From: Candidatus Omnitrophota bacterium
Lineage (GTDB): Bacteria > Omnitrophota > Gorgyraeia > Zapsychrales > JANLHA01
DNA length: 64,000 nucleotides
Reading direction: 5' to 3'
Assembly (NCBI GenBank): GCA_029560465.1
Contig: JAKQKX010000065.1
Span: 5,148-69,147, forward strand
Below, piece after piece: positions 29,370 through 38,773 of this stretch (positions within the stretch are counted from its first letter, which is position 1; the number at the start of each line of letters is the position of its first letter). Made by a program: the position numbers and the translations under genes. The notes below the pieces were generated by a model, which was not told where the DNA came from, did not search any database, and was given only the letters and a program-made list of their open reading frames with translations.

Positions 29370-29765
29370 TCATTGAGCAGGTTTGTCATAAAAATATGGT
29401 TCAAATTCCTTGCGGCACTTCACTTCACAGACAAAAGGGTTGATTTCGGCTTTATTGAATTCACAATCCTGGACGCACGTTTTGCACTGCATAAAAATAT
29501 CGTTGCTGACAAAACGGCATTCCCCGTCCACAACCCGGCATTCCGCGAACTGGCGGCAAAAATCGCCGAGCTGATACATCGCCGTACAGGCCATGGGCTG
29601 GCTGAACCCGCATTGAATATCAAGCCCATGACAATTCTGAATCCGGCATTGTTCTTCCGGCCTCCCCTGCGGCCTGTCAAGGACCCCTTTTTTATCGCCG
29701 CTGCCCAGCAACACGAACACGCCGATCACGAAAGCGCAGGAAACGGTCCATTTGTTAACAATCAT
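29370..29765 (-). CDS. Small secreted cysteine-rich protein (12 Cys), last gene of the Fap-like cluster
   Basis: The likely start is MIVNKWTVSCAFVIGVFVLLGSG (signal peptide/anchor). The mature part is dense in Cys (CRIQNCHGLDIQCGF...CKTCVQDCEF...CEVKC). The track ORF extends to 29855. The overlapping plus-strand ORF 29250..29846 is judged spurious. Confidence 0.4.
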   Translation of the reverse strand: MIVNKWTVSCAFVIGVFVLLGSGDKKGVLDRPQGRPEEQCRIQNCHGLDIQCGFSQPMACTAMYQLGDFCRQFAECRVVDGECRFVSNDIFMQCKTCVQDCEFNKAEINPFVCEVKCRKEFEPYFYDKPAQ

Positions 29766-29924
29766 AATATTTTTCCCCTTATCCGCATATTTTACGGAAA
29801 TAACAACCCGCATTGCAAGACGCCGACAGAATACATGGCTTCTTAAACAACTCATATTTTATCACGCTTTAATGACGTGACGCAATCATAATGAAATTTA
29901 TAACGACTTGAAAAGACGGGGAGG

Positions 29925-31352
29925 CTAGAAACTGTACGGGAAACGGACTTCAAATGTCATGTCAGGCGCATCGCTTGTAAGCCCCAGGCTCACGGCAAAA
30001 TCCATGGAAGCCCGCTCGCTGAGCGCCCAATTGAAGCCGGTTTTGAAGTTAGCCGCGTTCTGAAAAGAACCCGGCACATCACGCCCGTCTCTATTCATCT
30101 TGCCGGTGACGGTGTGGTCAAAGGAAAAATTAATCGCCGTCTGATAACTCAAAGCGATAGCGGTGCCTAAACTGTAGCCGATGGAATCCCCGGGGTCAAC
30201 CTCCCCAAAATTCTCGATATCACCGCGAGGGATATTGTATGTGTAATTGATGCTCCCGAAAACAACGGCCGGATCGCTGGCCTTGGCTCCGACCAGAGCG
30301 CCGCTAACGGCCCAGTGTCCGGTTCCCATAGCGATATCCGTATTATACGGCTCATCCCCCGTGTTGGATTTAACGGACAGGCTCGCCACAAGATCAGGCA
30401 TTATCCCATGCTCCCAGCCGATCTGACGGCTGATCGAAACCTGAATGTCACCCAACCCGCCTTTCGAATCCGTCTGGTCATAAGTTGTGCTGTCGGTATT
30501 GGTGACGCGGTCATATTCAAACCGGCCCGGGACACGAACTTCAGTCTGAAGGTTATGTAAAAGGCCGTATTTAAACGCCCAGGTATGAATAAACACGTCC
30601 CGTTTTACTTTTTCCGTGTTGATGTCCCCAATGACTAAAATAGGAAGTATGCTGAACCCGTTAATATTAATCCGGTTCGAAGAAAAATGGGCGTAGGTCA
30701 AACTCGGTTCAAACTGCAGTTTCCCTTTCGGAAGCAGGATACTGCCTTTCTGAACGAGCGTCCGTTCAATCGAATCGACCCGCTCTAGAGTCCCTCCCTC
30801 CGGCTCGGGGGCTTGGGATGGGGCCGCTTGTTTTTTAGGGGTTTTTTCGGCATGGGATGCCGAAGCCAAAAGCATAACGTCTTGAGAAGGGGCTCTCATC
30901 ATCCCGACGCCGGGCACTTGGACATCCAATTCGATTCCTTGCCCGGCAATAAAACGGTCTAGTTCCTTATCGGTTAAACCAACATTATATTGCTCAACCG
31001 TTTCCCGGACTGTCCGGCGGACCGCCTCACGGATTGATTCTTCGCCTGGCAGGATGGCTTCCACCTGCCGCGGTAGGCCTTGCGGGTTAACGCCCCCATC
31101 AGCCTCCCCCCCTGCCTTCCGGGCCAGATACGAGTCCACTTCTCTACGGATCTCTTCCGCGATAAAAGGTTCCATCTGGGCCAGCACTTCCGCACGGATA
31201 TCCTTCCTGATCTCCTGACGGATTTGCGCGGCAAGGCCGTCCATGTCCCTGGTGGCCTTGGAATAACGGGAACGCAAAGCCCCAAGGGCCAAGAGAAGGG
31301 ATATGGTTATAACTCCCATGATATAAGGGAAGGTTTTTTTAATCATAATCAT
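29925..31352 (-). CDS. Outer-membrane beta-barrel protein with N-terminal coiled coil (FapF-like secretion pore candidate)
   Basis: 475 aa. An N-terminal signal/anchor is followed by a heptad-like helical segment (AAQIRQEIRKDIRAEVLAQMEPFIAEEIRREVDSYLARK). A C-terminal domain of about 270 aa has alternating amphipathic strands and ends in an aromatic residue (FEVRFPYSF), as outer-membrane beta-barrels do. Confidence 0.5.
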   Translation of the reverse strand: MIMIKKTFPYIMGVITISLLLALGALRSRYSKATRDMDGLAAQIRQEIRKDIRAEVLAQMEPFIAEEIRREVDSYLARKAGGEADGGVNPQGLPRQVEAILPGEESIREAVRRTVRETVEQYNVGLTDKELDRFIAGQGIELDVQVPGVGMMRAPSQDVMLLASASHAEKTPKKQAAPSQAPEPEGGTLERVDSIERTLVQKGSILLPKGKLQFEPSLTYAHFSSNRININGFSILPILVIGDINTEKVKRDVFIHTWAFKYGLLHNLQTEVRVPGRFEYDRVTNTDSTTYDQTDSKGGLGDIQVSISRQIGWEHGIMPDLVASLSVKSNTGDEPYNTDIAMGTGHWAVSGALVGAKASDPAVVFGSINYTYNIPRGDIENFGEVDPGDSIGYSLGTAIALSYQTAINFSFDHTVTGKMNRDGRDVPGSFQNAANFKTGFNWALSERASMDFAVSLGLTSDAPDMTFEVRFPYSF

Positions 31353-31355
31353 GTA

Positions 31356-32039
31356 TTACCATTCATTAGTGAACACCGTTGTCCTGAGCTGAAGCGGGTT
31401 AACAAAACGTTTCAAGGACCGGTAGTCCGCCATGCGGATATCTTCATGTTCAATCTGCAAAGCATAATCATTTTTTATTTCGTGGTCCGGGTGTTCCACC
31501 ACGAAACCGATACCATTCGTCCACATCGATATAAATTTTTCATCTTTAATTGTCATATTCCCGACCGCCGGGTCAGCGATGAATACCCTGTCACCGAAAA
31601 CACCCTTAACGACAACAAAATGCCGGTAATTTTTAAACTTGATAGGCACCAGAACCGGTTTCCCAATGGACTTTAAATACTCAAAATCCATGCGGTATCC
31701 TGTCACTTTATAGCCACGGGACTGAGCGAACTTCTTCAAATCAAATAATGAAAATCCCTGCCGTGCCATCACCTTTTCTAAAGGAATCGTGTTCAGGAGG
31801 GAATTAATGATTTCGATTTCAGGGATCGGGTCATTCAAGTAATAATTAAACAAAGTGGCTAACCCGGCCGCGCCGCAGCTGTAGTCCCAGCCTTGTGTCA
31901 CGACATTCTCCTGCCGGATCTCTTTCAAACTCCTGACTTTCTTGTTAAAACCCATCCCCCCAACCGAGAAGCTGGCCGCATTCGCAGGAAGCGCGAGGGC
32001 GCATAAAAGGCAGACAGTGATAAAAAAGTTTTTAAACAT
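31356..32039 (-). CDS. Periplasmic C39-family cysteine peptidase (FapD-like), stand-alone with Sec signal peptide
   Basis: 227 aa with signal peptide MFKNFFITVCLLCALALPANA. The C39 catalytic Cys context is QGWDYSCGAAGLATLFNYY and the His/Asp context is NYRHFVVVKGVFGDRVFIADP. There is no ABC transporter fusion. Confidence 0.7.
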   Translation of the reverse strand: MFKNFFITVCLLCALALPANAASFSVGGMGFNKKVRSLKEIRQENVVTQGWDYSCGAAGLATLFNYYLNDPIPEIEIINSLLNTIPLEKVMARQGFSLFDLKKFAQSRGYKVTGYRMDFEYLKSIGKPVLVPIKFKNYRHFVVVKGVFGDRVFIADPAVGNMTIKDEKFISMWTNGIGFVVEHPDHEIKNDYALQIEHEDIRMADYRSLKRFVNPLQLRTTVFTNEW

Positions 32040-32094
32040 TGTTATATTGTAAACGAATTAACGGCGGGACGCAACTGATTAATATGAAAGAGGT

Positions 32095-32553
32095 TTATGG
32101 CGCGATAATAAGATTATTGTTACTCATCACATTGCCGGCGATCGTTGAATTGATGATAACATTCAAATTGAGGCCGACTAAGACATTGCTGCCTGCCGCA
32201 TTGACATTGATGAGGCTATTGGCGAATTGCTGGGCATAATCCTGCAAATTAATGTAATTGATATCACCGGAACCCGTACTGAATATAGGACTCGATCCCC
32301 TATCCCCGCTAAAAAACAGCGTCGCATCCCCATTCGCCTCCAAAGTGAAATTCAGTTCCGGCGGCATAAATATTTTATCAAAATTTCCAAAAAAATCATT
32401 GAATCCGCTGAAATTAAACCCCTGCGCATAAATCTGATCTAATTCTTCATCAGACAAGAGGACTGCGGTTCCTGAGGCCACGGCCATGGAAACGGCGGTA
32501 TTCAAACACAAGAAAACAGCCGTTATAATCATAATCACACACTTTCGAACCAT
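32095..32553 (-). CDS. Small secreted N/G-rich repeat protein (FapB-like nucleator candidate)
   Basis: 152 aa with a signal peptide, then LSDEELDQIYAQG directly after the predicted cleavage site. The C-terminus has amyloid-like N-rich beta-repeats (NVNAAGSNVLVGLNLNVIINSTIAGNVMSNNN). Confidence 0.5.
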   Translation of the reverse strand: MVRKCVIMIITAVFLCLNTAVSMAVASGTAVLLSDEELDQIYAQGFNFSGFNDFFGNFDKIFMPPELNFTLEANGDATLFFSGDRGSSPIFSTGSGDINYINLQDYAQQFANSLINVNAAGSNVLVGLNLNVIINSTIAGNVMSNNNLIIAP

Positions 32554-32643
32554 CCCTGGGGCCTCTTTCTTTTAATAGTACTTTATTAAGAATTTTTAGG
32601 GGGGAGGATCGCCTCCCCCCTAAAAAATCCGATTTAACTCTTA

Positions 32644-35112
32644 TTAAAGACCATTCGTCACGTTTGCGATGTTGGACTGATTGATCGTACCGTTCAAACT
32701 GCCTGTTGCGCTCATGATATTCGTTTGAACCGCTACGCCCGACCCAACCGCATTCACAGTACTCAACGCAGTGATTCCGGCTTGTGAAGAACCGGATAAT
32801 ATCAACACGTTTTTCTCGCTCTTGTTTTGACGATTTGTGTTGTTGACTTCAGCTATGTTTGTGATGGTCTGACTTGCGTCATTCGTTGTAGCTTCAATGT
32901 CGTTCGTTTCAACTGAATTCTCGGTCTTCTCATACTGATCTTTGAATTCATCATTGTTACGAGCTTGTGCACCTTCAGAAGCCTGCTCTTCGTCATGGTT
33001 AAACGTCGTTGATAAGGCTCCTTCAGCTTCGAAGTTGCTCGTTGTTGACGCACTGCTCTCATCAGAATGATCAGTCGTGTCAATCGAGTCGGTCGAAGCA
33101 GCAACATCACGGGATGCTGATGTGGATAAAGCGTCAGAATCCGTGTACCCGATCGTCAAACTGTTAGAGGACTCCGAAGAATCCGCCTCAGAGGCTGAAG
33201 CAGAAGCCGCATCGTCATACGCTACGTTTAATGAACCGGAAGCGGTTGTTTCAGAAGAAGAAGCGGCTGACGCGGAGTCATTGTAAGTAGCATCCACGGA
33301 ATTAGAAGCCGTTGTTTCCGAAGAAGCGGCGGCTGACGCGGAATCATCATATGCCGCGTTTAAAGAACCGGAAGCTGTCGTGTCAGAAGAAGAAGCGGCT
33401 GACGCAGAATCATTGTAAGTGGCATCCACGGAATTAGAAGCCGTTGTTTCCGAAGAAGCGGCGGCTGACGCGGAATCACTATAGGTTGCGTCTAATGAAC
33501 CGGAAGCAGTGGTGTTTTCAGAAGCGGCCACAGATTGCTGAGCTTCACCAGAAGCTGCCGCATTGGCAGAATCAGATGCAGAGTCATTATAAGTCGCATT
33601 CAGATTTCCACCTTGAGTACTATTGGACTCTGCAGAGCTTGAGCTGGCAGCAGAATCATTGTAAGTCGCAGAAAGCGCGCCAGAGGCATCCGTGCCTTCA
33701 GAACTCGCTGCTGACGTTGATGCTGTGTTATCTTTGCTGTCATACGTATCACCGCGAGAAGCAACACCTTCAACCGTAGTGGTTGATGTTGCGCAATCTG
33801 CGCAAGTGTCTGTGGTCTGGGTATACGTCCCATCAAGCGCCTGGGCGCTTGTGGATGTTTCTCCATCCGTAGCCGATGAACTGCTTGAAGATTCCGACGC
33901 CGCATTATCAGAATATTGGGCATTGGCATCTAAAGTAGCGGATGTCGCGTCTTGAGCCGCAGCCTGCTCAGAGGCGCTGTCTGACGCGGAATAATCAGCT
34001 TCCAAGGAAGAGGCTGTCGCGCTGTCAGACTGTGAACTGCTTTCATACTGGGCGGCTTGGCTGGCGCTTGCTTCATAAGCGGCACTGTCAGAATAATCAG
34101 CCTCTGCACTTAACGTCGCATCAGTTGCTTCTTGCGATTGCGAAGCAGAACTATCAGAGGAAGCGGAATCCGCTGCAAATGTCGCGGAGGTCGCTTCTTC
34201 TGACTGGGCGGCTTCACTGTCAGAATAATTAACAGCTACGTCTAAGGACGCGCTGGTTGCTTCTTGTGATTGCGAAGCAGAACTATCAGAGGAAGCGGAA
34301 TCCGCTGCAAATGTCGCGGAGGTCGCTTCTTCTGACTGGGCGGCCGCACTGTCAGAATACTGAGCTTCAGCATCTAATGACGCAGACGTCGACTCGGCTG
34401 ATTCAGATTCAGACGTGTGAGCGGCTGACTGCTGAGCCTGCTGGTCATAATCAAACGTCGTGTCATTCGATGCGCTGAACTGCGCGTCGGCGCTGTCTGT
34501 TGCCGCGGCGTGATCTTCGCTCAAAGTTGAATCAGTGACTTTAGACGCTGTATCAGAAGTAGCAGAGGTCGATCCGGAAGCGGATGCGTCTAAGGTAGCC
34601 GATGTAGATTCGGAAGAGCTGCTCGCTGCCGAAGACTGCTCATTGTCATAAATTTGAGTATTGTCTTCTTTTTCCCACAGGTCAGAAGTTTTCACCGTGG
34701 TCTCTTTTGACCAAGCATTGACCTGATCCTGTTCCACGATATTCGTGGCCTTGGTGGACACGGAATAATCTTCGGAAGGATTCATGTTGACGACATTCGC
34801 GGCGTTGCTCTGGCTCGCCTCTACGTCAGCCTGATCTTCGGAGTTGCCGACGTTGGTCTGCACGGCAACCGCACTGTCAACGGTGTTGACAACACTCAAT
34901 CCCGTTAAATTTTCCTGTGCTCCACTTTCAGATTTGAGTTTATTTTCGCTGAAATAAACATCTTCCACCACATCACCTTCAGCAATCACAATCCATTCAC
35001 CAGCCGCGATTTCGTCCATCTCGGAATCGGAAAGCGCGATGCCTTCCGCATAACCGGCCACCGGATAAGCGGCGAACGCCACGGCTAGAATCCAAATAAG
35101 TAATTTTTTCAT
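32644..35112 (-). CDS. Large secreted repeat protein (FapC-like fibre subunit candidate) with giant low-complexity Ser/Thr/Ala/Asp linker
   Basis: 822 aa with a signal peptide, then LSDSEMDEIAAGE. An N-terminal N-rich repeat (LTGLSVVNTVDSAVAVQTNVGNSED) and a C-terminal repeat (ITALSTVNAVGSGVAVQTNIMSATGSLNGTINQSNIANVTNGL) match the motif of the 152 aa neighbour. The central region of about 600 aa is acidic Ser/Thr/Ala-rich tandem repeats. Confidence 0.6.
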   Translation of the reverse strand: MKKLLIWILAVAFAAYPVAGYAEGIALSDSEMDEIAAGEWIVIAEGDVVEDVYFSENKLKSESGAQENLTGLSVVNTVDSAVAVQTNVGNSEDQADVEASQSNAANVVNMNPSEDYSVSTKATNIVEQDQVNAWSKETTVKTSDLWEKEDNTQIYDNEQSSAASSSSESTSATLDASASGSTSATSDTASKVTDSTLSEDHAAATDSADAQFSASNDTTFDYDQQAQQSAAHTSESESAESTSASLDAEAQYSDSAAAQSEEATSATFAADSASSDSSASQSQEATSASLDVAVNYSDSEAAQSEEATSATFAADSASSDSSASQSQEATDATLSAEADYSDSAAYEASASQAAQYESSSQSDSATASSLEADYSASDSASEQAAAQDATSATLDANAQYSDNAASESSSSSSATDGETSTSAQALDGTYTQTTDTCADCATSTTTVEGVASRGDTYDSKDNTASTSAASSEGTDASGALSATYNDSAASSSSAESNSTQGGNLNATYNDSASDSANAAASGEAQQSVAASENTTASGSLDATYSDSASAAASSETTASNSVDATYNDSASAASSSDTTASGSLNAAYDDSASAAASSETTASNSVDATYNDSASAASSSETTASGSLNVAYDDAASASASEADSSESSNSLTIGYTDSDALSTSASRDVAASTDSIDTTDHSDESSASTTSNFEAEGALSTTFNHDEEQASEGAQARNNDEFKDQYEKTENSVETNDIEATTNDASQTITNIAEVNNTNRQNKSEKNVLILSGSSQAGITALSTVNAVGSGVAVQTNIMSATGSLNGTINQSNIANVTNGL
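33180..33560. repeat. Near-perfect tandem repeats of about 120 bp (two 60 bp subunits) inside the 822 aa gene
   Basis: The string cattgtaagtRgcatccacggaattagaagccgttgtttccgaagaagcggcggctgacgcggaatca recurs at about 33283 and 33403. It encodes (DATYNDSASAASSSETTASGSL)n. Confidence 0.7.
34136..34399. repeat. Two near-identical 132 bp (44 codon) tandem repeats inside the 822 aa gene, with diverged flanking copies
   Basis: gattgcgaagcagaactatcagaggaagcggaatccgctgcaaatgtcgcggaggtcgcttcttctgactgggcggc occurs at 34136 and again at 34268. The period of 132 is a multiple of 3. Confidence 0.75.
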
Positions 35113-35503
35113 TCTTATCCTCTCTTTAACTCGGCAAGGGCGAGAATGCCGACTGCGCTTCTCATTAACCCTTTGTTCCCAAACTTAATTCATCCTTATA
35201 AAAATTAACCCAAAACCGCCACTGCTATCAATAATCCGCACTCACCTCCTTTCAACTCTTTAACAATAAAAAACCCGGCAACTCGCCAAACCTGCTGGCC
35301 TGTTTCCGGGTATGACATTATATGACGTTATGTATTTCATAAGCAAAATTGACAGCGTACTTGAAGTAGGACCTATTTTAGCAATAAACGTGTCTTGCGC
35401 AATGGTCGCATTTGTTCATTTATTGGAAATTTTTGTCTTGATCACACCGATATATGAAGGGTAAGGCAACAGTATTTTTATAGCATTCTAAAAATGCTAA
35501 ACA

Positions 35504-36367
35504 TCAAGCGCGGGCCTCCATCTGGGCAAATCCTTGGCGGACTTTAGGTAAGGTTAAACGGCGGGACGTCTGATAAACACGGTAAAAACCCGGAGTCTTC
35601 CCATACGCCTTCTTAAACACCTTGCAAAAATAGCCCGGGTCTTCATACCCGCAGGTATAAGCGATCTCCGAAACTGACAAACTCTTATTCTGCAAAAGAC
35701 GGGAAGCGACTTGCAATCGGGTGTTATTAAGATACTGGGTAAAATTGGTTTTTAACACTTTCTTAATTAACCGGCTGAGATAATGATAGCTTAATCCGGT
35801 TTCTTCACAAAGATGCCGCAGGGAAAGATCCGGCTGGTGGTAATTTGTGCTTATATAACGGGCCACCTTCTCGACAACTTTCTGTTGATAACTCATTGTA
35901 TTATCTTTAAGATTCGAGAACAAGGTCAACTCTTCCCTGATATCCGACAAAAAATTTTCCAAAAGATTAACGATCGCTTTAATCTGTTGATGGCTGAGGC
36001 GGAAATGCGGGGTTTCCAAGACAAGCAAATAACCCACAATATCCTGACGGATTTCAATAGGGAGCAAAATCTTGGCAAACCCGGCCCGGCACTTGTCAAC
36101 CTGGATTTTCCCGGAACTGGTTGCTTTCTCTATAATAGAGGAAATCAGGGAATCACACACCTCAGTCCGGGACTGACAATCCGCGTGGAAATCCTGAATG
36201 TTCTCATGTTGAGGATTATGCAAAGCGGGAGAATAATTGCATTTAAAAATCCGGCCATCCAATGACCGGATTTCCAAGGTGGCGCCACAAAGGATACAGA
36301 TCACTTCTTGGATATGTTTGAACGCATGAGCTTCTTCAAAATACTCTAAGAGAGTATTAAAGTTCAT
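35504..36367 (-). CDS. AraC-family transcriptional regulator with N-terminal Cys-containing sensory domain
   Basis: 287 aa with a C-terminal AraC HTH (LSRLIKKVLKTNFTQYLNNTRLQVASRLL...YEDPGYFCKVFKKAYGKTPGFY). The N-terminus carries conserved Cys/His (ICILCGATLEIR...FKCNY). Confidence 0.85.
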   Translation of the reverse strand: MNFNTLLEYFEEAHAFKHIQEVICILCGATLEIRSLDGRIFKCNYSPALHNPQHENIQDFHADCQSRTEVCDSLISSIIEKATSSGKIQVDKCRAGFAKILLPIEIRQDIVGYLLVLETPHFRLSHQQIKAIVNLLENFLSDIREELTLFSNLKDNTMSYQQKVVEKVARYISTNYHQPDLSLRHLCEETGLSYHYLSRLIKKVLKTNFTQYLNNTRLQVASRLLQNKSLSVSEIAYTCGYEDPGYFCKVFKKAYGKTPGFYRVYQTSRRLTLPKVRQGFAQMEARA

Positions 36368-36521: not shown

Positions 36522-37415
36522 TTAATACTGGACATAAACTTTAACTTCTTTAAGGTGGGTTTCGGACTTTTGGGAGGAGCCCGACGATGCCAGGGATTTC
36601 TTATTAAGGCCGTCCTGGGCGTTCTGGAAATTCTGGCGGAGACAGGCCAGGGGCTGTTCGTACCCGAGGATAAACAACCCGTTCACAAGCTCCAGGTATT
36701 GAATAAAATATTGAATCGCGAAGAGGTAATTCCATTCCACGCCAACCGCCGAAGGCCCGGGCGCGAATGTTAAAGTTTTATGCCCCTGGATAATATACTC
36801 CTTGTCCCCAAGGATCGTCGGGTGAGAAAACCGCGAGCATTGCCGGAACATGGATTCGTACTCCTGGTGCAGTTCGCGGCTGACAATCCGCGCCATATCT
36901 TTGACCGTTCTCCCGGACCAGGTCACCAGGGCCCGGTCTGAAGTAACACGGTATTTCTTCTTAAAATCTTCAACATGCGAGAGGACCAGGGCTTTCTTTT
37001 CCAAAAATTCCTTCTGGCTTTTTTCCGGGGCGCGGCGCAGGGAGAGTTCTTCTTCAGCGATCGAACGCTTGAAAATGACCCACTTATATTCTACAAACCG
37101 CCTGGCTTTTTCATCCGCCTTATGGGGATCATAAATAATATACTGTACCGTAATCAGGTTTTCCAACAGGCTCCTGAGCAGGGCCGAAACATCCTGCCCA
37201 TACCCACGCTGGCATAAGACTTCAATCGCCGCGAAAGTTTTGACCGCCCGGGTCATGATAAAGAGAAAAATTCGCTTATGCGCCGGGAGGTCAAAAAGCT
37301 TAATATTTCTCCTGTTAATTTCCTGAAACAGCGTCCTCCCCAGGTCATGGGCCGCTTTTCCGGCCTGGGCCAGCTCAAGGCAAGAAATAAAGTTGTGATC
37401 CATATTCTTAGTCAT
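36522..37415 (-). CDS. Hypothetical helical protein, co-operonic with the SPL-family radical SAM gene
   Basis: 297 aa with no confident family assignment. Its start overlaps the stop of the upstream radical SAM gene (ATGA). Confidence 0.5.
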   Translation of the reverse strand: MTKNMDHNFISCLELAQAGKAAHDLGRTLFQEINRRNIKLFDLPAHKRIFLFIMTRAVKTFAAIEVLCQRGYGQDVSALLRSLLENLITVQYIIYDPHKADEKARRFVEYKWVIFKRSIAEEELSLRRAPEKSQKEFLEKKALVLSHVEDFKKKYRVTSDRALVTWSGRTVKDMARIVSRELHQEYESMFRQCSRFSHPTILGDKEYIIQGHKTLTFAPGPSAVGVEWNYLFAIQYFIQYLELVNGLFILGYEQPLACLRQNFQNAQDGLNKKSLASSGSSQKSETHLKEVKVYVQY

Positions 37416-38773
37416 TGTCTTCGAGAGAAAACCGCCCGGTCAAGTCGCCGTTCCAGCGGCAGGCCTTCCCAGGCCTCTGTCTGTTCCATGCACAAATAAA
37501 CCGGAACACCCTCATCCTCTTCCCGGATACTGTTCAACATGCTTTTATAAATCGTTCTCCTCACATTCAAGGGATACCGTAATTTCCCGTCATAACCAGG
37601 CACAAGTTCCCCGCCAAGGATGCGGGATGCCGGGAAACGGGATTCCATCACCTGTTTAAGCCGCGGCATCATCCGCAAGCATCCCAAGCTGATCCAGGCC
37701 ATCCTCTCCGGAGGCACAGCTTCAAATAAACGTCGGACCACCCCTCGGTACTCTTCTTCCCACCCCTCATCATACACGATCGGGTCGAAATGAAACGACA
37801 CACGCCAGCCCCGGCCAGCACATTTCTGAGCAGCCGCCAGGCGCTGCTCCAGCGATGCCGTCCCTTGTTCGTCACGGGCAACCACCCGTTCGGGATTCAG
37901 GGACCAACCGACACAGACATTCGGCGAAGAGTCCTCTTCCAATAATAAACTTATATTATCACTTTTAGTTTTAAATTCAAAGAACCAGTCCGGATGCCGC
38001 CGCATGAAATGGATGATGTGACGGGAATATTCTGTAAAATGATCCAACGCCAGGGAATCGCTAAATTGCCCGGTCCCGATCCGCCACGGGCCCCCGTGAG
38101 CTTCCAAGCTCCGGAAAAAATCATTAATATTCGAGGGAAAAACAATCCCCGGGGAGTTCAGATATCCTTGCATAAAGCAATATGTACAGTCAAAAGGACA
38201 CCCCTGGCCCAAATTCAGGACAGCGTAACCGCAAGAAACCGACCCTTTTGAGCAGGGACACGCTTGCCAGAATTGATGCTTTTCCCGGACGACAAAAAAC
38301 ACCTCTGCCCGTCGGTTGTACTCCGCGACGGAAAACGCCTGTTGGCGGCAATACTGCTTATACGAAACAACCAGCTCTATCGGGACGCCAGGAAGCATCC
38401 GCCGCAGGCGCTGGGCCAACGGATCAGCCAACAATGGTTCTTCCACCAATATCCTTTTCGGCTTAAAGTGACACGCCTTGGACTCCGCATCCGGTATCGG
38501 GCAGGGCTCCGGTATTTTCAAAAAACGCTGCAGTCCCCTTCTCTGAAACGCCGGCATATTCGGATACCGGCGTTTCGTCAAAAACGCTTTGACTTGCCGA
38601 AATGAGCAACTCTGCTGTACCCTTTCCGGTAAAACAGCCTGGACAGGGCAGCCGTCGCGCCTGACAATTTCAAACAGCAAACGTGAAATTTCCTGCTTTT
38701 TATTCACGCCAAAAGCCGGGAAGGTTTCATCCGTATAACGCTGAATCGAGACAGCTGAAGTCATCGCGTCCAT
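37412..38773 (-). CDS. Spore-photoproduct-lyase-family (SplB/COG1533-like) radical SAM protein with about 100 aa N-terminal extension
   Basis: 453 aa. The radical SAM cluster CPFDCTYC (C-x3-C-x2-C) sits at about residue 195 rather than about 90 as in SplB. Confidence 0.65.
   Translation of the reverse strand: MDAMTSAVSIQRYTDETFPAFGVNKKQEISRLLFEIVRRDGCPVQAVLPERVQQSCSFRQVKAFLTKRRYPNMPAFQRRGLQRFLKIPEPCPIPDAESKACHFKPKRILVEEPLLADPLAQRLRRMLPGVPIELVVSYKQYCRQQAFSVAEYNRRAEVFFVVREKHQFWQACPCSKGSVSCGYAVLNLGQGCPFDCTYCFMQGYLNSPGIVFPSNINDFFRSLEAHGGPWRIGTGQFSDSLALDHFTEYSRHIIHFMRRHPDWFFEFKTKSDNISLLLEEDSSPNVCVGWSLNPERVVARDEQGTASLEQRLAAAQKCAGRGWRVSFHFDPIVYDEGWEEEYRGVVRRLFEAVPPERMAWISLGCLRMMPRLKQVMESRFPASRILGGELVPGYDGKLRYPLNVRRTIYKSMLNSIREEDEGVPVYLCMEQTEAWEGLPLERRLDRAVFSRRQ

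Follow-up and report, generated by a model that had tools for sequence, protein, structure and literature searches.

Gene content and conservation of the locus

The analyzed window (a 64,000-nt stretch of a contig from a Candidatus Omnitrophota bacterium) contains five co-directional minus-strand ORFs encoding, in transcription order, a large "A-type" cargo (822 aa; 32644..35112), a small "B-type" cargo (152 aa; 32095..32553), a stand-alone C39 cysteine peptidase (227 aa; 31356..32039), a FapF-like outer-membrane pore (475 aa; 29925..31352) and a small secreted Cys-rich protein (29370..29765). These ORFs and their intervening gaps (90, 55, 3, and 69 nt) confirm the arrangement of five genes separated by 3–90 bp that was given in an earlier note on this DNA. 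All features described below are also on the minus strand. An AraC regulator was correctly placed upstream by the same note: a gene at 35504..36367 encodes a 287-aa AraC-family protein with a PocR-like sensory N-terminal part (Pfam HTH_18 1.4e-22, HTH_AraC 2.7e-16, PocR 1.3e-4). It is followed by a 391-nt stretch (35113..35503), taken to be intergenic and to hold the cargo operon's 5' leader, in which no Rfam family was matched. Further upstream is a gene for a 297-aa DUF5677 protein (36522..37415; Pfam DUF5677 1.2e-20), on which a signal peptide was not noted. Both this gene and the double-glycine-like propeptide motif described below had been missed in the earlier note.

Seven loci from different Omnitrophota, with differing flanking genes, share the order DUF5677, AraC, large cargo, small cargo, C39 peptidase, FapF-like pore, and this module is conserved as a unit across the phylum. 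The DUF5677 gene, the first of the module, lies directly upstream at each of the seven independent loci; in six of them the AraC gene separates it from that of the large cargo (AraC is missing from L017). The pore gene adjoins the C39 gene at every locus, being 3 nt apart in the window. Among the homologues collected for the peptidase (114) and the pore (116), all those for which a source is named come from Omnitrophota/Omnitrophica.

The Cys-rich ORF is outside this conserved module. Its full frame (29370..29855) spans 161 aa, and comparison with the orthologue from L002 indicates that translation most likely starts at the internal Met31, giving a protein of 131 aa with 12 Cys in its mature part. 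No family or PDB match was obtained for this protein, and its gene is not downstream of the pore gene in five diverged loci (L004, L006, L013, L016, and L017). The proposal that it is a fifth member of the cluster was thus not borne out, and its membership in the system is doubtful.

The FapF-like pore and the C39 peptidase

By sequence comparison and structure modeling, the 475-aa protein is a FapF homologue. It matches the NCBIfam FapF model (5.3e-44) and the FapF structures 5o65/5o67 in the PDB (E=2e-32), and a Foldseek search with its AF2 model (pLDDT 80.9) returned FapF chains at all ranks from 1 to 18 (E down to 1e-24, TM 0.81–0.87, 27–28% identity), with the next fold, the COG4313 channel 4rl8, far behind (E=8e-15, 16% identity). 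The predicted layout comprises an N-terminal hydrophobic segment, charged helices to approximately residue 121, a propeptide-like motif, a disordered P/A/Q linker (137–188), a plug helix (194–201) and a beta-barrel (212–470). The structure prediction suggested in the earlier note thus yielded a FapF fold rather than an unrelated porin; as to the N-terminal coiled coil with a C-terminal barrel proposed there, the barrel holds, while the N-terminal part is predicted to be helical only. The NCBIfam score (150.7 bits) is below the equivalog cut-off of 700 bits, and is level with that of the pore from a divergent fap operon, L014 (151.7 bits).

The peptidase (Pfam Peptidase_C39 3.6e-22) has a Sec signal peptide ending in ..ALPANA (followed by AS), and is therefore predicted to be periplasmic. 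The catalytic Cys/His alignment was checked, and Q49, C55, H140, and D156 are all present with C39 spacing; an alignment with LahT150 (PDB 6mpz; 2.9e-10) spans the Cys, His, and Asp motifs. The best NCBIfam match is FilB (5.1e-41), followed by FapD (1.3e-33; 116 bits, below the cut-off of 330 bits). Judged by these residues, it is a catalytically intact C39 enzyme, exported via its own Sec signal, in agreement with the stand-alone periplasmic C39 peptidase of the earlier note.

Two cargo proteins and a double-glycine-type motif

Both cargos have Sec signal peptides. In the large cargo, the signal peptide is followed by a propeptide motif, an N-terminal Q/N-rich motif, an acidic S/A/T/D/E spacer of about 600–625 aa with 22/44-aa repeats (66/132-nt tandem repeats in the gene), a C-terminal Q/N-rich motif and a terminal NGL. 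Its overall composition (S 21%, A 19%, T 10.5%, D 8.9%, E 7.3%; pI 4.05) corrects the previous description of an N/G-rich repeat protein: the repeats are real, and N/G richness is confined to the last ~60 residues. Orthologues of 322–973 aa with the same ends are found in L001, L002, L004, L006, L013, L016, and L017, always terminating in NG[FLM]; the protein matches no Pfam or NCBIfam family. Just 3' of its gene, a strong GC-rich hairpin (15-bp stem, 8 GC pairs) followed by a T-rich sequence (32593..32626) is probably an intra-operon attenuator or mRNA stabilizer, and a hairpin of different sequence occupies the same position in L002, L004, L006, and L013 (MFE of the whole intergenic region from -30 to -47 kcal/mol).

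The small cargo belongs to a family of 94 representative clusters (among 1.84 billion proteins), and its AF2 monomer model is unstructured (pLDDT 65.6, pTM 0.25). Its C-terminal motif, QQFANSLINVNAAGSNVLVGLNLNVIINST, lies within residues 101–146 (32116..32253). An HMM built from the C-terminus of this family confirmed that the terminal motif is indeed common to the two secreted proteins, as had been noted, by detecting the C-terminal copy of the large cargo, ...ITALSTVNAVGSGVAVQTNIMSATGSLNGTINQSN (residues 771–814; 32671..32802; E=1.1e-6) as well as its N-terminal copy, ...LTGLSVVNTVDSAVAVQTNV (residues 65–88; 34849..34920; E=0.009); among other ORFs of the window, nothing scored better than E=3. 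The two copies of the large cargo share 14 of 23 residues (read from the sequence), and several relatives of the small cargo carry the motif twice. In an amyloid-propensity profile of the kind recommended in the earlier note, the hot spots fall in these conserved motifs, and the mature cargos have no other aggregation-prone segments (a rough AGGRESCAN-type profile); amyloid formation by the cargos is putative.

At E<=0.1, neither cargo matches the Pfam FapBC model or those for FapB, FapC, FapE and FilA, no FapB, FapC, FapBC or FapE match was found for 45 cargo-family members at E<=10, and the cargos have no relatives among solved structures; the FapB/FapC/FapBC models do detect the divergent fap operon L014. 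The interpretation of the locus as a Fap-like amyloid cluster is strongly supported for the machinery (FapF-like pore, FapD/FilB-related peptidase) and unsupported for the Fap repeat subunits.

A motif of the form LSDxE[LM]DxI.A.G stands right after the Sec signal peptides of both cargos: LSDSEMDEIAAG, followed by EW, in the large cargo (residues 27–38; 34999..35034; leader HMM E=1.5e-4) and LSDEELDQIYAQG in the small cargo (residues 33–45; 32419..32457). The same motif, as LTDKELDRFIAGQG, is present in the periplasmic arm of the pore (residues 126–139; 30936..30977). Across the six-frame translation of the window (128,000 residues), there are three instances of the seven-residue core L[STN]D.[EQ][LM]D, all of them in the two cargos and the pore. 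Within the small-cargo family, the leader pattern is found in 82 of 98 sequences, about 30 residues from the N-terminus, and an HMM built from this family picks up the motif at the equivalent place in each of the eight large-cargo sequences (E from 1e-5 to 2.5e-3). The window pore obtains a leader-HMM score of only E=3.8, so the case for its motif rests on the exact pattern and on family-wide conservation, with a consensus of LSDEELDQYVA[GS]GGIEP and a column conservation of 0.61 (0.30 and 0.33 for the periplasmic regions on either side). The motif is predicted to be helical in the AF2 models of the pore and the small cargo.

The pattern and spacing L(-12) E(-8) L(-7) I(-4) G/A(-2) G(-1) are highly conserved in both cargos and the pore, with a register shift of one residue between the classes; the position ahead of the conserved Gly varies among members of the small-cargo family (G/E/Q/K/R, with Q in the window). 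Curated leader models gave no significant match to family members, and the weak NCBIfam matches of these proteins include the double-glycine-leader families CTB bacteriocin, lacticin 481, and BlpC. Leader-like strings seen by eye in FilA, in the FapE-like protein of L014 and in L008 proteins are not significant. An hhalign comparison of the small-cargo profile with the L014 FapE-like protein aligned the leader alone (E=0.11); in function, the small cargo may correspond to FapE. New here is the double-glycine-type motif itself, which is found on both cargos and on the pore arm and is likely a recognition tag for the C39 peptidase. The substrate of FapD is still undetermined according to the literature, which describes this peptidase as "thought to" process FapE at its N-terminal end, as well as the FapF periplasmic region (PMC5557850, PMC6173800, PMC12822426); the Omnitrophota motifs, at the cargo N-termini and in the periplasmic arm of the pore, occupy these very sites.

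Relation to known systems and a proposed secretion mechanism

With the Fap system, described from three classes of Proteobacteria (PMC9268375), the Omnitrophota module shares (i) a FapF-type pore with a plug helix, a long linker and an N-terminal helical arm, (ii) a Sec-exported stand-alone C39 peptidase homologous to FapD and (iii) Sec-dependent unfolded cargos with Q/N/S/A/G-rich beta-prone motifs and variable linkers, all encoded in one operon. It differs in its cargos, which match none of the FapB, FapC, FapE or FapBC models, carry one or two motif copies (vs. three or more tandem repeats in Fap, a departure from known functional amyloids in general) and, in the large cargo, include the ~600-aa acidic spacer, as well as in the presence of AraC and DUF5677 genes within the module. 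It also differs in the clear double-glycine-type propeptide of its cargos and pore; canonical C39 sequences are reported to be absent from Fap proteins (PMC5557850). No candidate ORF for FapA was found in the cluster, and FapA is the most commonly missing Fap gene according to one review (PMC6173800). The same review (Rouse et al., 2018) notes co-localised fapD and fapF homologues outside Proteobacteria, with less than 5 kb between them, in a further five phyla; the Omnitrophota locus is such a pair, and the review's passages on those pairs describe no cargo, recognition motif or operon architecture.

The putative pilus system Fil of Acinetobacter (filA-E), not mechanistically characterized in the papers retrieved, shares with our locus a peptidase of the FilB type, which tops the NCBIfam list, a FapF-type barrel (FilC) and a Sec-exported cargo, FilA, which is Gly/Ala/Ser/Thr-rich by eye and encoded just upstream of the peptidase. 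However, the window proteins score far below the cut-offs of the FilB (140.9 vs. 475 bits) and FilC models (60.7 vs. 630 bits), which a real Fil locus, L015, exceeds (544 and 681 bits), and the window pore is much nearer to FapF than FilC is (150.7 vs. 57.6 bits). No cluster protein matches FilA, FilD (FadL-type) or FilE, whose models work on L015. The peptidase-containing ABC transporters (PCATs) LahT, PCAT1, and ComA have the C39 fold and catalytic residues in common with our peptidase (6mpz), and the LSxxELxxIxGG-type spacing of the predicted helical leader with our cargos. In contrast to them, the Omnitrophota C39 is unfused to an ABC transporter and predicted to be periplasmic, the cargo leader comes after a Sec signal peptide rather than forming the N-terminus itself, and export of the large, disordered cargos would proceed via an outer-membrane barrel.

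The best explanation of these observations, and in our judgment a moderately probable one, is a two-step outer-membrane secretion operon of the Fap/Fil type exporting two intrinsically disordered cargos. After Sec export and removal of the signal peptide, each cargo would keep a 16–19-residue propeptide with an amphipathic double-glycine-type leader. The periplasmic C39 peptidase would recognize this leader, most likely cleave it, and pass the unfolded cargo to the pore, whose own motif may either dock the peptidase or, by being cut, switch the channel on or reset it. Once exported, the cargos would associate outside the cell via the Q/N-rich beta-prone motifs that both carry (the large cargo at each of its ends), forming a fibre or meshwork with the ~600-residue acidic Ser/Ala/Thr spacer standing out from it as a hydrated brush. 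Expression would be controlled by the AraC/PocR-type regulator, and the hairpin after the first gene would make the large cargo the most abundantly expressed.

An alternative concerns the fate of the cargos. Using the same secretion route, they could instead form an acidic mucin-like coat or an adhesin, secreted or surface-attached, with the terminal motifs acting as export or anchoring signals read by the pore rather than as a polymerization core. We regard this as rather unlikely, even though the fold-free monomer model of the small cargo, the presence of just one or two motif copies per protein, the low-complexity acidic spacer, the lack of homology to FapB, FapC or CsgA-type repeats and the invariant NG[FLM] end of the large cargo, suggestive of a recognized C-terminus, all agree with it. 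It would be odd for a single targeting signal to stand at either end of the large cargo and to be duplicated in several relatives of the small one; moreover, the aggregation-prone segments of the mature proteins (by the rough profile) coincide with the motifs, and the homologous Fap (PMC5557850) and Fil machineries are both associated with fibres.

Within the proposed route, the peptidase might bind without cutting, serving as a receptor or chaperone in the manner of C39-like domains in some type 1 secretion ABC transporters, which would leave the motif as only a docking tag. The lack of conservation at the expected -1 position in the small-cargo family and the occurrence of the motif in the pore, where a need for cleavage is not obvious, would fit such a role, which is nevertheless improbable given the complete Gln, Cys, His, and Asp set with canonical spacing and the requirement of the FapD catalytic Cys for secretion in Pseudomonas (PMC5557850). 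Much less probable still is an uptake channel for hydrophobic compounds of the COG4313/Phenol_MetA_deg type, incidentally adjacent to the other genes: the sole significant Pfam match of the pore is Phenol_MetA_deg (4e-9), 4rl8 is its second-best fold match and NCBI names it just "transporter," but FapF is matched much more strongly, the pore gene invariably adjoins the C39 gene, the pore has the cargo motif, and no C39 partners are reported for COG4313 channels (PMC6173800). Least credible is a bacteriocin or toxin export locus, which the leader pattern and the weak matches to bacteriocin/pheromone leader families would recall, since the cluster is devoid of an ABC transporter or immunity gene, the cargos are 150–970-aa low-complexity proteins with Sec signals, and the peptidase itself is Sec-signaled and predicted to be periplasmic.

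Returning to two-step secretion of disordered cargos, the locus takes Fap-type machinery, here with an unrelated cargo family, into a phylum outside the Proteobacteria. It also adds a conserved, regulated operon for a probable surface structure in Omnitrophota, a group about whose cell-surface biology little is known. The FapD cleavage target and FapD-FapF cooperation have been open questions since 2017, which the Omnitrophota motif makes testable by peptide cleavage and mutagenesis. A broader and tentative reading, which we put forward as a possibility somewhat short of even, is that Fap, Fil and the Omnitrophota module represent one general pathway, in which a periplasmic C39 peptidase reads a post-Sec double-glycine propeptide on the cargo and the pore arm, and cleavage gates both export and head-to-tail polymerization via matching N- and C-terminal motifs. 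If so, the Omnitrophota proteins would be the first to offer a recognition site for a FapD-type protease that is defined by sequence, as well as defining a phylum-wide "bottle-brush" surface fibre in ultra-small, possibly host-dependent bacteria. A cargo design in which sticky Q/N ends are linked by a long, acidic and disordered spacer that varies in length may also interest the field of engineered secreted biomaterials.

A conserved Fap/Fil-related operon in Omnitrophota

The locus is a real, conserved secretion operon related to the Fap and Fil systems and carrying a cargo family that has not been described. Five minus-strand ORFs preceded by an AraC-family gene (35504..36367), as delineated in the earlier note, were all recovered in place: a large cargo (822 aa, 32644..35112), a small cargo (152 aa, 32095..32553), a C39 peptidase (227 aa, 31356..32039), a FapF-like pore (475 aa, 29925..31352) and a Cys-rich ORF (161 aa as called, 29370..29855), separated by gaps of 90, 55, 3 and 69 nt. 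Comparison of gene context in seven independent loci (the window and Omnitrophota loci L002, L004, L006, L013, L016 and L017) revealed a common order of DUF5677, AraC, large cargo, small cargo, C39 peptidase and FapF-like barrel, from which AraC is missing only in L017; cargo sizes across these loci range from 322 to 973 aa (large) and from 151 to 470 aa (small). The genes flanking the module differ between loci, and the constancy of its internal order while outside genes vary marks the module as a functional unit. The DUF5677 gene (36522..37415, minus strand), which opens the module in 7/7 loci and which the earlier note did not mention, encodes a product with no obvious link to secretion. 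The gene for a spore-photoproduct-lyase-like radical SAM protein (37412..38773, minus strand) adjoins the module in the window and L002 only and is probably unconnected with it.

Homologues in a set of 5.8 billion proteins number 114 for the peptidase and 116 for the pore, and all of those with a named source are labelled Omnitrophota or Omnitrophica. The database contains 100% identical copies of both the pore and the peptidase, the pore copy being assigned to Candidatus Omnitrophota by its source, and the nearest genome locus (L002) lies on a 3.36 Mb Omnitrophota MAG chromosome.

Comparison with the L002 orthologue indicates that the Cys-rich ORF probably starts at Met31 (131 aa, 29370..29765, minus strand). 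The resulting secreted protein has 12 cysteines in its mature part and no match in Pfam, NCBIfam or PDB. Its gene, conserved in L002 (a close relative), lies behind the pore only in such relatives; in 5/5 diverged loci unrelated genes occupy this position. Its proposed inclusion in the system was thus abandoned, and it was rejected as a core component, being missing from, and unlinked to the module in, all five of these loci.

The large-cargo gene is followed directly by a strong, GC-rich hairpin of 15 bp with T-rich sequence behind it (32593..32626, minus strand), which probably acts as an attenuator or mRNA stabiliser within the operon. A hairpin, of differing sequence, occupies this position in five loci (window, L002, L004, L006, L013), which suggests that the large cargo is expressed above the downstream genes, a pattern known from many pilus operons. 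Neither the cluster nor the 391-nt leader matched an Rfam family, and a sigma-70 promoter scan gave nothing above shuffled expectation.

The C39 peptidase and the FapF-like pore

The peptidase, which has its own signal peptide, matches Pfam C39 at 3.6e-22, its best named relatives being FilB (5.1e-41) and FapD (1.3e-33). Alignment with the double-glycine protease LahT150 extends across the catalytic motifs and assigns Q49, C55, H140 and D156 at canonical spacing, in agreement with the earlier identification of a C39 peptidase. Residues 194-475 of the pore hit the NCBIfam FapF model at 5.3e-44, and the pore aligns with the barrel of the FapF crystal structure (E=2e-32) as far as the C-terminal PYxF. 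Its AF2 model (48-sequence alignment; pLDDT 80.9) contains helices at 8-80, 107-121 and 128-136, disorder at 137-188 and a barrel at 212-470, with a short helix (194-201) where FapF has its plug. An unrelated porin or autotransporter fold, given as a refuting outcome in the earlier note, is disfavoured by a Foldseek search with this model, in which FapF chains occupy ranks 1-18 (E down to 1e-24, TM 0.81-0.87, 27-28% identity) and the next fold is a COG4313 channel (8e-15, 16% identity). The scores of both proteins lie far below the NCBIfam equivalog cut-offs, so that they belong to the families but are not orthologous to FapD/FapF or FilB/FilC. An interpretation of the N-terminal hydrophobic segment of the pore as an uncleaved membrane anchor was not adopted, as cleavage sites of ordinary signal peptides occur in several homologues.

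Cargo proteins and a shared leader-like motif

Neither cargo matches a Pfam or NCBIfam family. The FapB/FapC/FapE models are sensitive: Pfam FapBC and NCBIfam FapB, FapC and, weakly, FapE recognise L014 (GCA_021776435.1, 2629..8539; three FapBC-family genes plus those for FapD, a FapE-like protein of 151 aa and FapF), a fap operon that is genuine despite its divergence; likewise, the FilA-E models recognise the Acinetobacter baumannii Fil locus. The small-cargo family is rare (5 close relatives; 94 representative clusters among 1.84 billion proteins) and combines conserved N- and C-terminal blocks with a linker that can have nearly any length and is frequently Pro/Thr/Ser-rich. An HMM of its C-terminal block (consensus QQ.L.SLVNVNAAGS.V.V.LNL.V.INS) matches the large cargo twice, at the C-terminus (E=1e-6) and near the N-terminus (E=0.009), with the same two-end result in large-cargo orthologues and no other window ORF better than E=3. 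The terminal motif earlier proposed to be common to both cargos is thereby substantiated, and the two proteins are related through it, the large cargo having one copy at each end; two copies also occur in several small-cargo relatives. The large cargo itself was previously taken to be N/G-rich, a description that applies only to its last ~60 residues: overall it is Ser/Ala/Thr/Asp/Glu-rich (S 21%, A 19%, T 10.5%, D 8.9%, E 7.3%; pI 4.05), and its gene contains 66/132-nt tandem repeats.

AF2 modelling of the small cargo (45-sequence alignment) gave no confident fold (pLDDT 65.6, pTM 0.25), its family profile produced a single chance match among PDB sequences (protocadherin, E=0.52), and an hhalign comparison with the FapE-like protein was not significant. 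In a rough AGGRESCAN-type aggregation profile, hot spots of the mature cargos are confined to the shared motifs and do not occur in the ~600-residue spacer. In its middle, this acidic spacer contains the sole two cysteines of the large cargo, arranged as a CxxC (TCADCA, residues 438-441, window ~33790..33801, minus strand); the CxxC is kept in L001, L002 and L004, L006 has no Cys, and L013 has two that do not form a CxxC. A conserved CxxC is also ascribed to FapC. On a further, short contig (L011, 6483..7405), a pair of neighbouring small-cargo-type genes (159 and 134 aa) encode proteins that both have the leader and the C-terminal motif; the contig breaks off too early to show a peptidase or pore.

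Double-glycine leaders of bacteriocin, NHLP and Nif11 precursors share L-12, E-8, L/M-7, I-4 and small residues at -2/-1. A motif of this kind stands directly behind the predicted signal-peptidase sites of the large cargo (LSDSEMDEIAAG-EW) and the small cargo (LSDEELDQIYAQG-F), and its spacing is that of the leader recognised by C39 peptidases. It is found in 82/98 small-cargo family sequences, ~30 residues from the N-terminus, and in 8/8 large-cargo sequences. A further copy (LTDKELDRFIAGQG, residues 126-139; 30936..30977, minus strand) is located in the periplasmic arm of the pore, with the consensus LSDEELDQYVA[GS]GGIEP over 41 Omnitrophota pores and a conservation of 0.61 vs. 0.30 and 0.33 in its flanks (barrel, 0.70); it is absent from distant pore homologues (24-29% identity). 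Within the 128,000 six-frame residues of the window, matches to the 7-residue core L[STN]D.[EQ][LM]D number three and are confined to the two cargos and the pore, vs. a roughly estimated chance expectation of <0.1. The AF2 models of the pore and the small cargo predict the motif as a short helix, and three double-glycine-leader peptide families are among the weak NCBIfam matches of family members. It is likely a protease-recognition motif.

A candidate secretion mechanism and its relation to known systems

Beyond the homology and conservation shown above, we infer the cleavage, export and assembly of the cargos as follows. They would be exported by Sec with removal of their signal peptides; the periplasmic C39 enzyme would recognise, and most likely cleave, the remaining 16-19-residue propeptide; and the unfolded cargo would then pass through the FapF-like pore, whose own leader copy would serve either to bring the peptidase to the channel or, through its cleavage, to control the channel. 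Once outside, the cargos may assemble via their shared Q/N-rich motifs, displaying the acidic spacer of the large cargo as a brush. The secretion and processing part of this model appears reasonably probable to us; the fibre-forming step is less certain, and the putative "functional amyloid" label of the locus is unproven.

In Pseudomonas, the catalytic Cys of FapD is needed for secretion, its target was not known at that time, and Fap proteins were reported to be without canonical C39 sequences, the FapE N-terminus and the FapF linker being the suspected targets (PMC5557850, PMC6173800); a 2025 review still words FapD targets as "thought to" (PMC12822426). The Omnitrophota family displays a clear motif at the very positions suspected in Fap. 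Fap has been described from three classes of Proteobacteria (PMC9268375), and co-localised fapD/fapF homologues were noted in five additional phyla in 2018, with no description of their cargo found in the portion of that article covered here (PMC6173800). A literature search combining Omnitrophota with amyloid or C39 retrieved only C39 domains of giant proteins and no paper on this operon, and one for filA, filB and filC together retrieved nothing.

By eye, leader-like strings can also be discerned outside Omnitrophota: a canonical-looking double-glycine leader behind the signal peptide of the L014 FapE-like protein (LSDKEMGELRGG / ALSDKEMGELRGG), a string right behind that of A. baumannii FilA (L015, 4646..5515; MDDAALSAATGQ / MDDAALSAATGQDG), and two (IADRQLANARGG and VSDRLLDRLRGG) in proteins encoded beside a FapD/FapF-like pair in a proteobacterial-type locus (L008, 6499..8780). 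Neither the leader HMM, built from the small-cargo family, nor the C-terminal-motif HMM scored significantly for FilA, the L014 Fap proteins or the L008 proteins; these resemblances are thus suggestive only, and generality of the leader beyond Omnitrophota is a lead. The A. baumannii record (NZ_CP104448.1) has 37 annotated features in all, none over the stretch holding the Fil genes; listed as a "plasmid" in PLSDB, it is 4.09 Mb long and evidently chromosome-sized.
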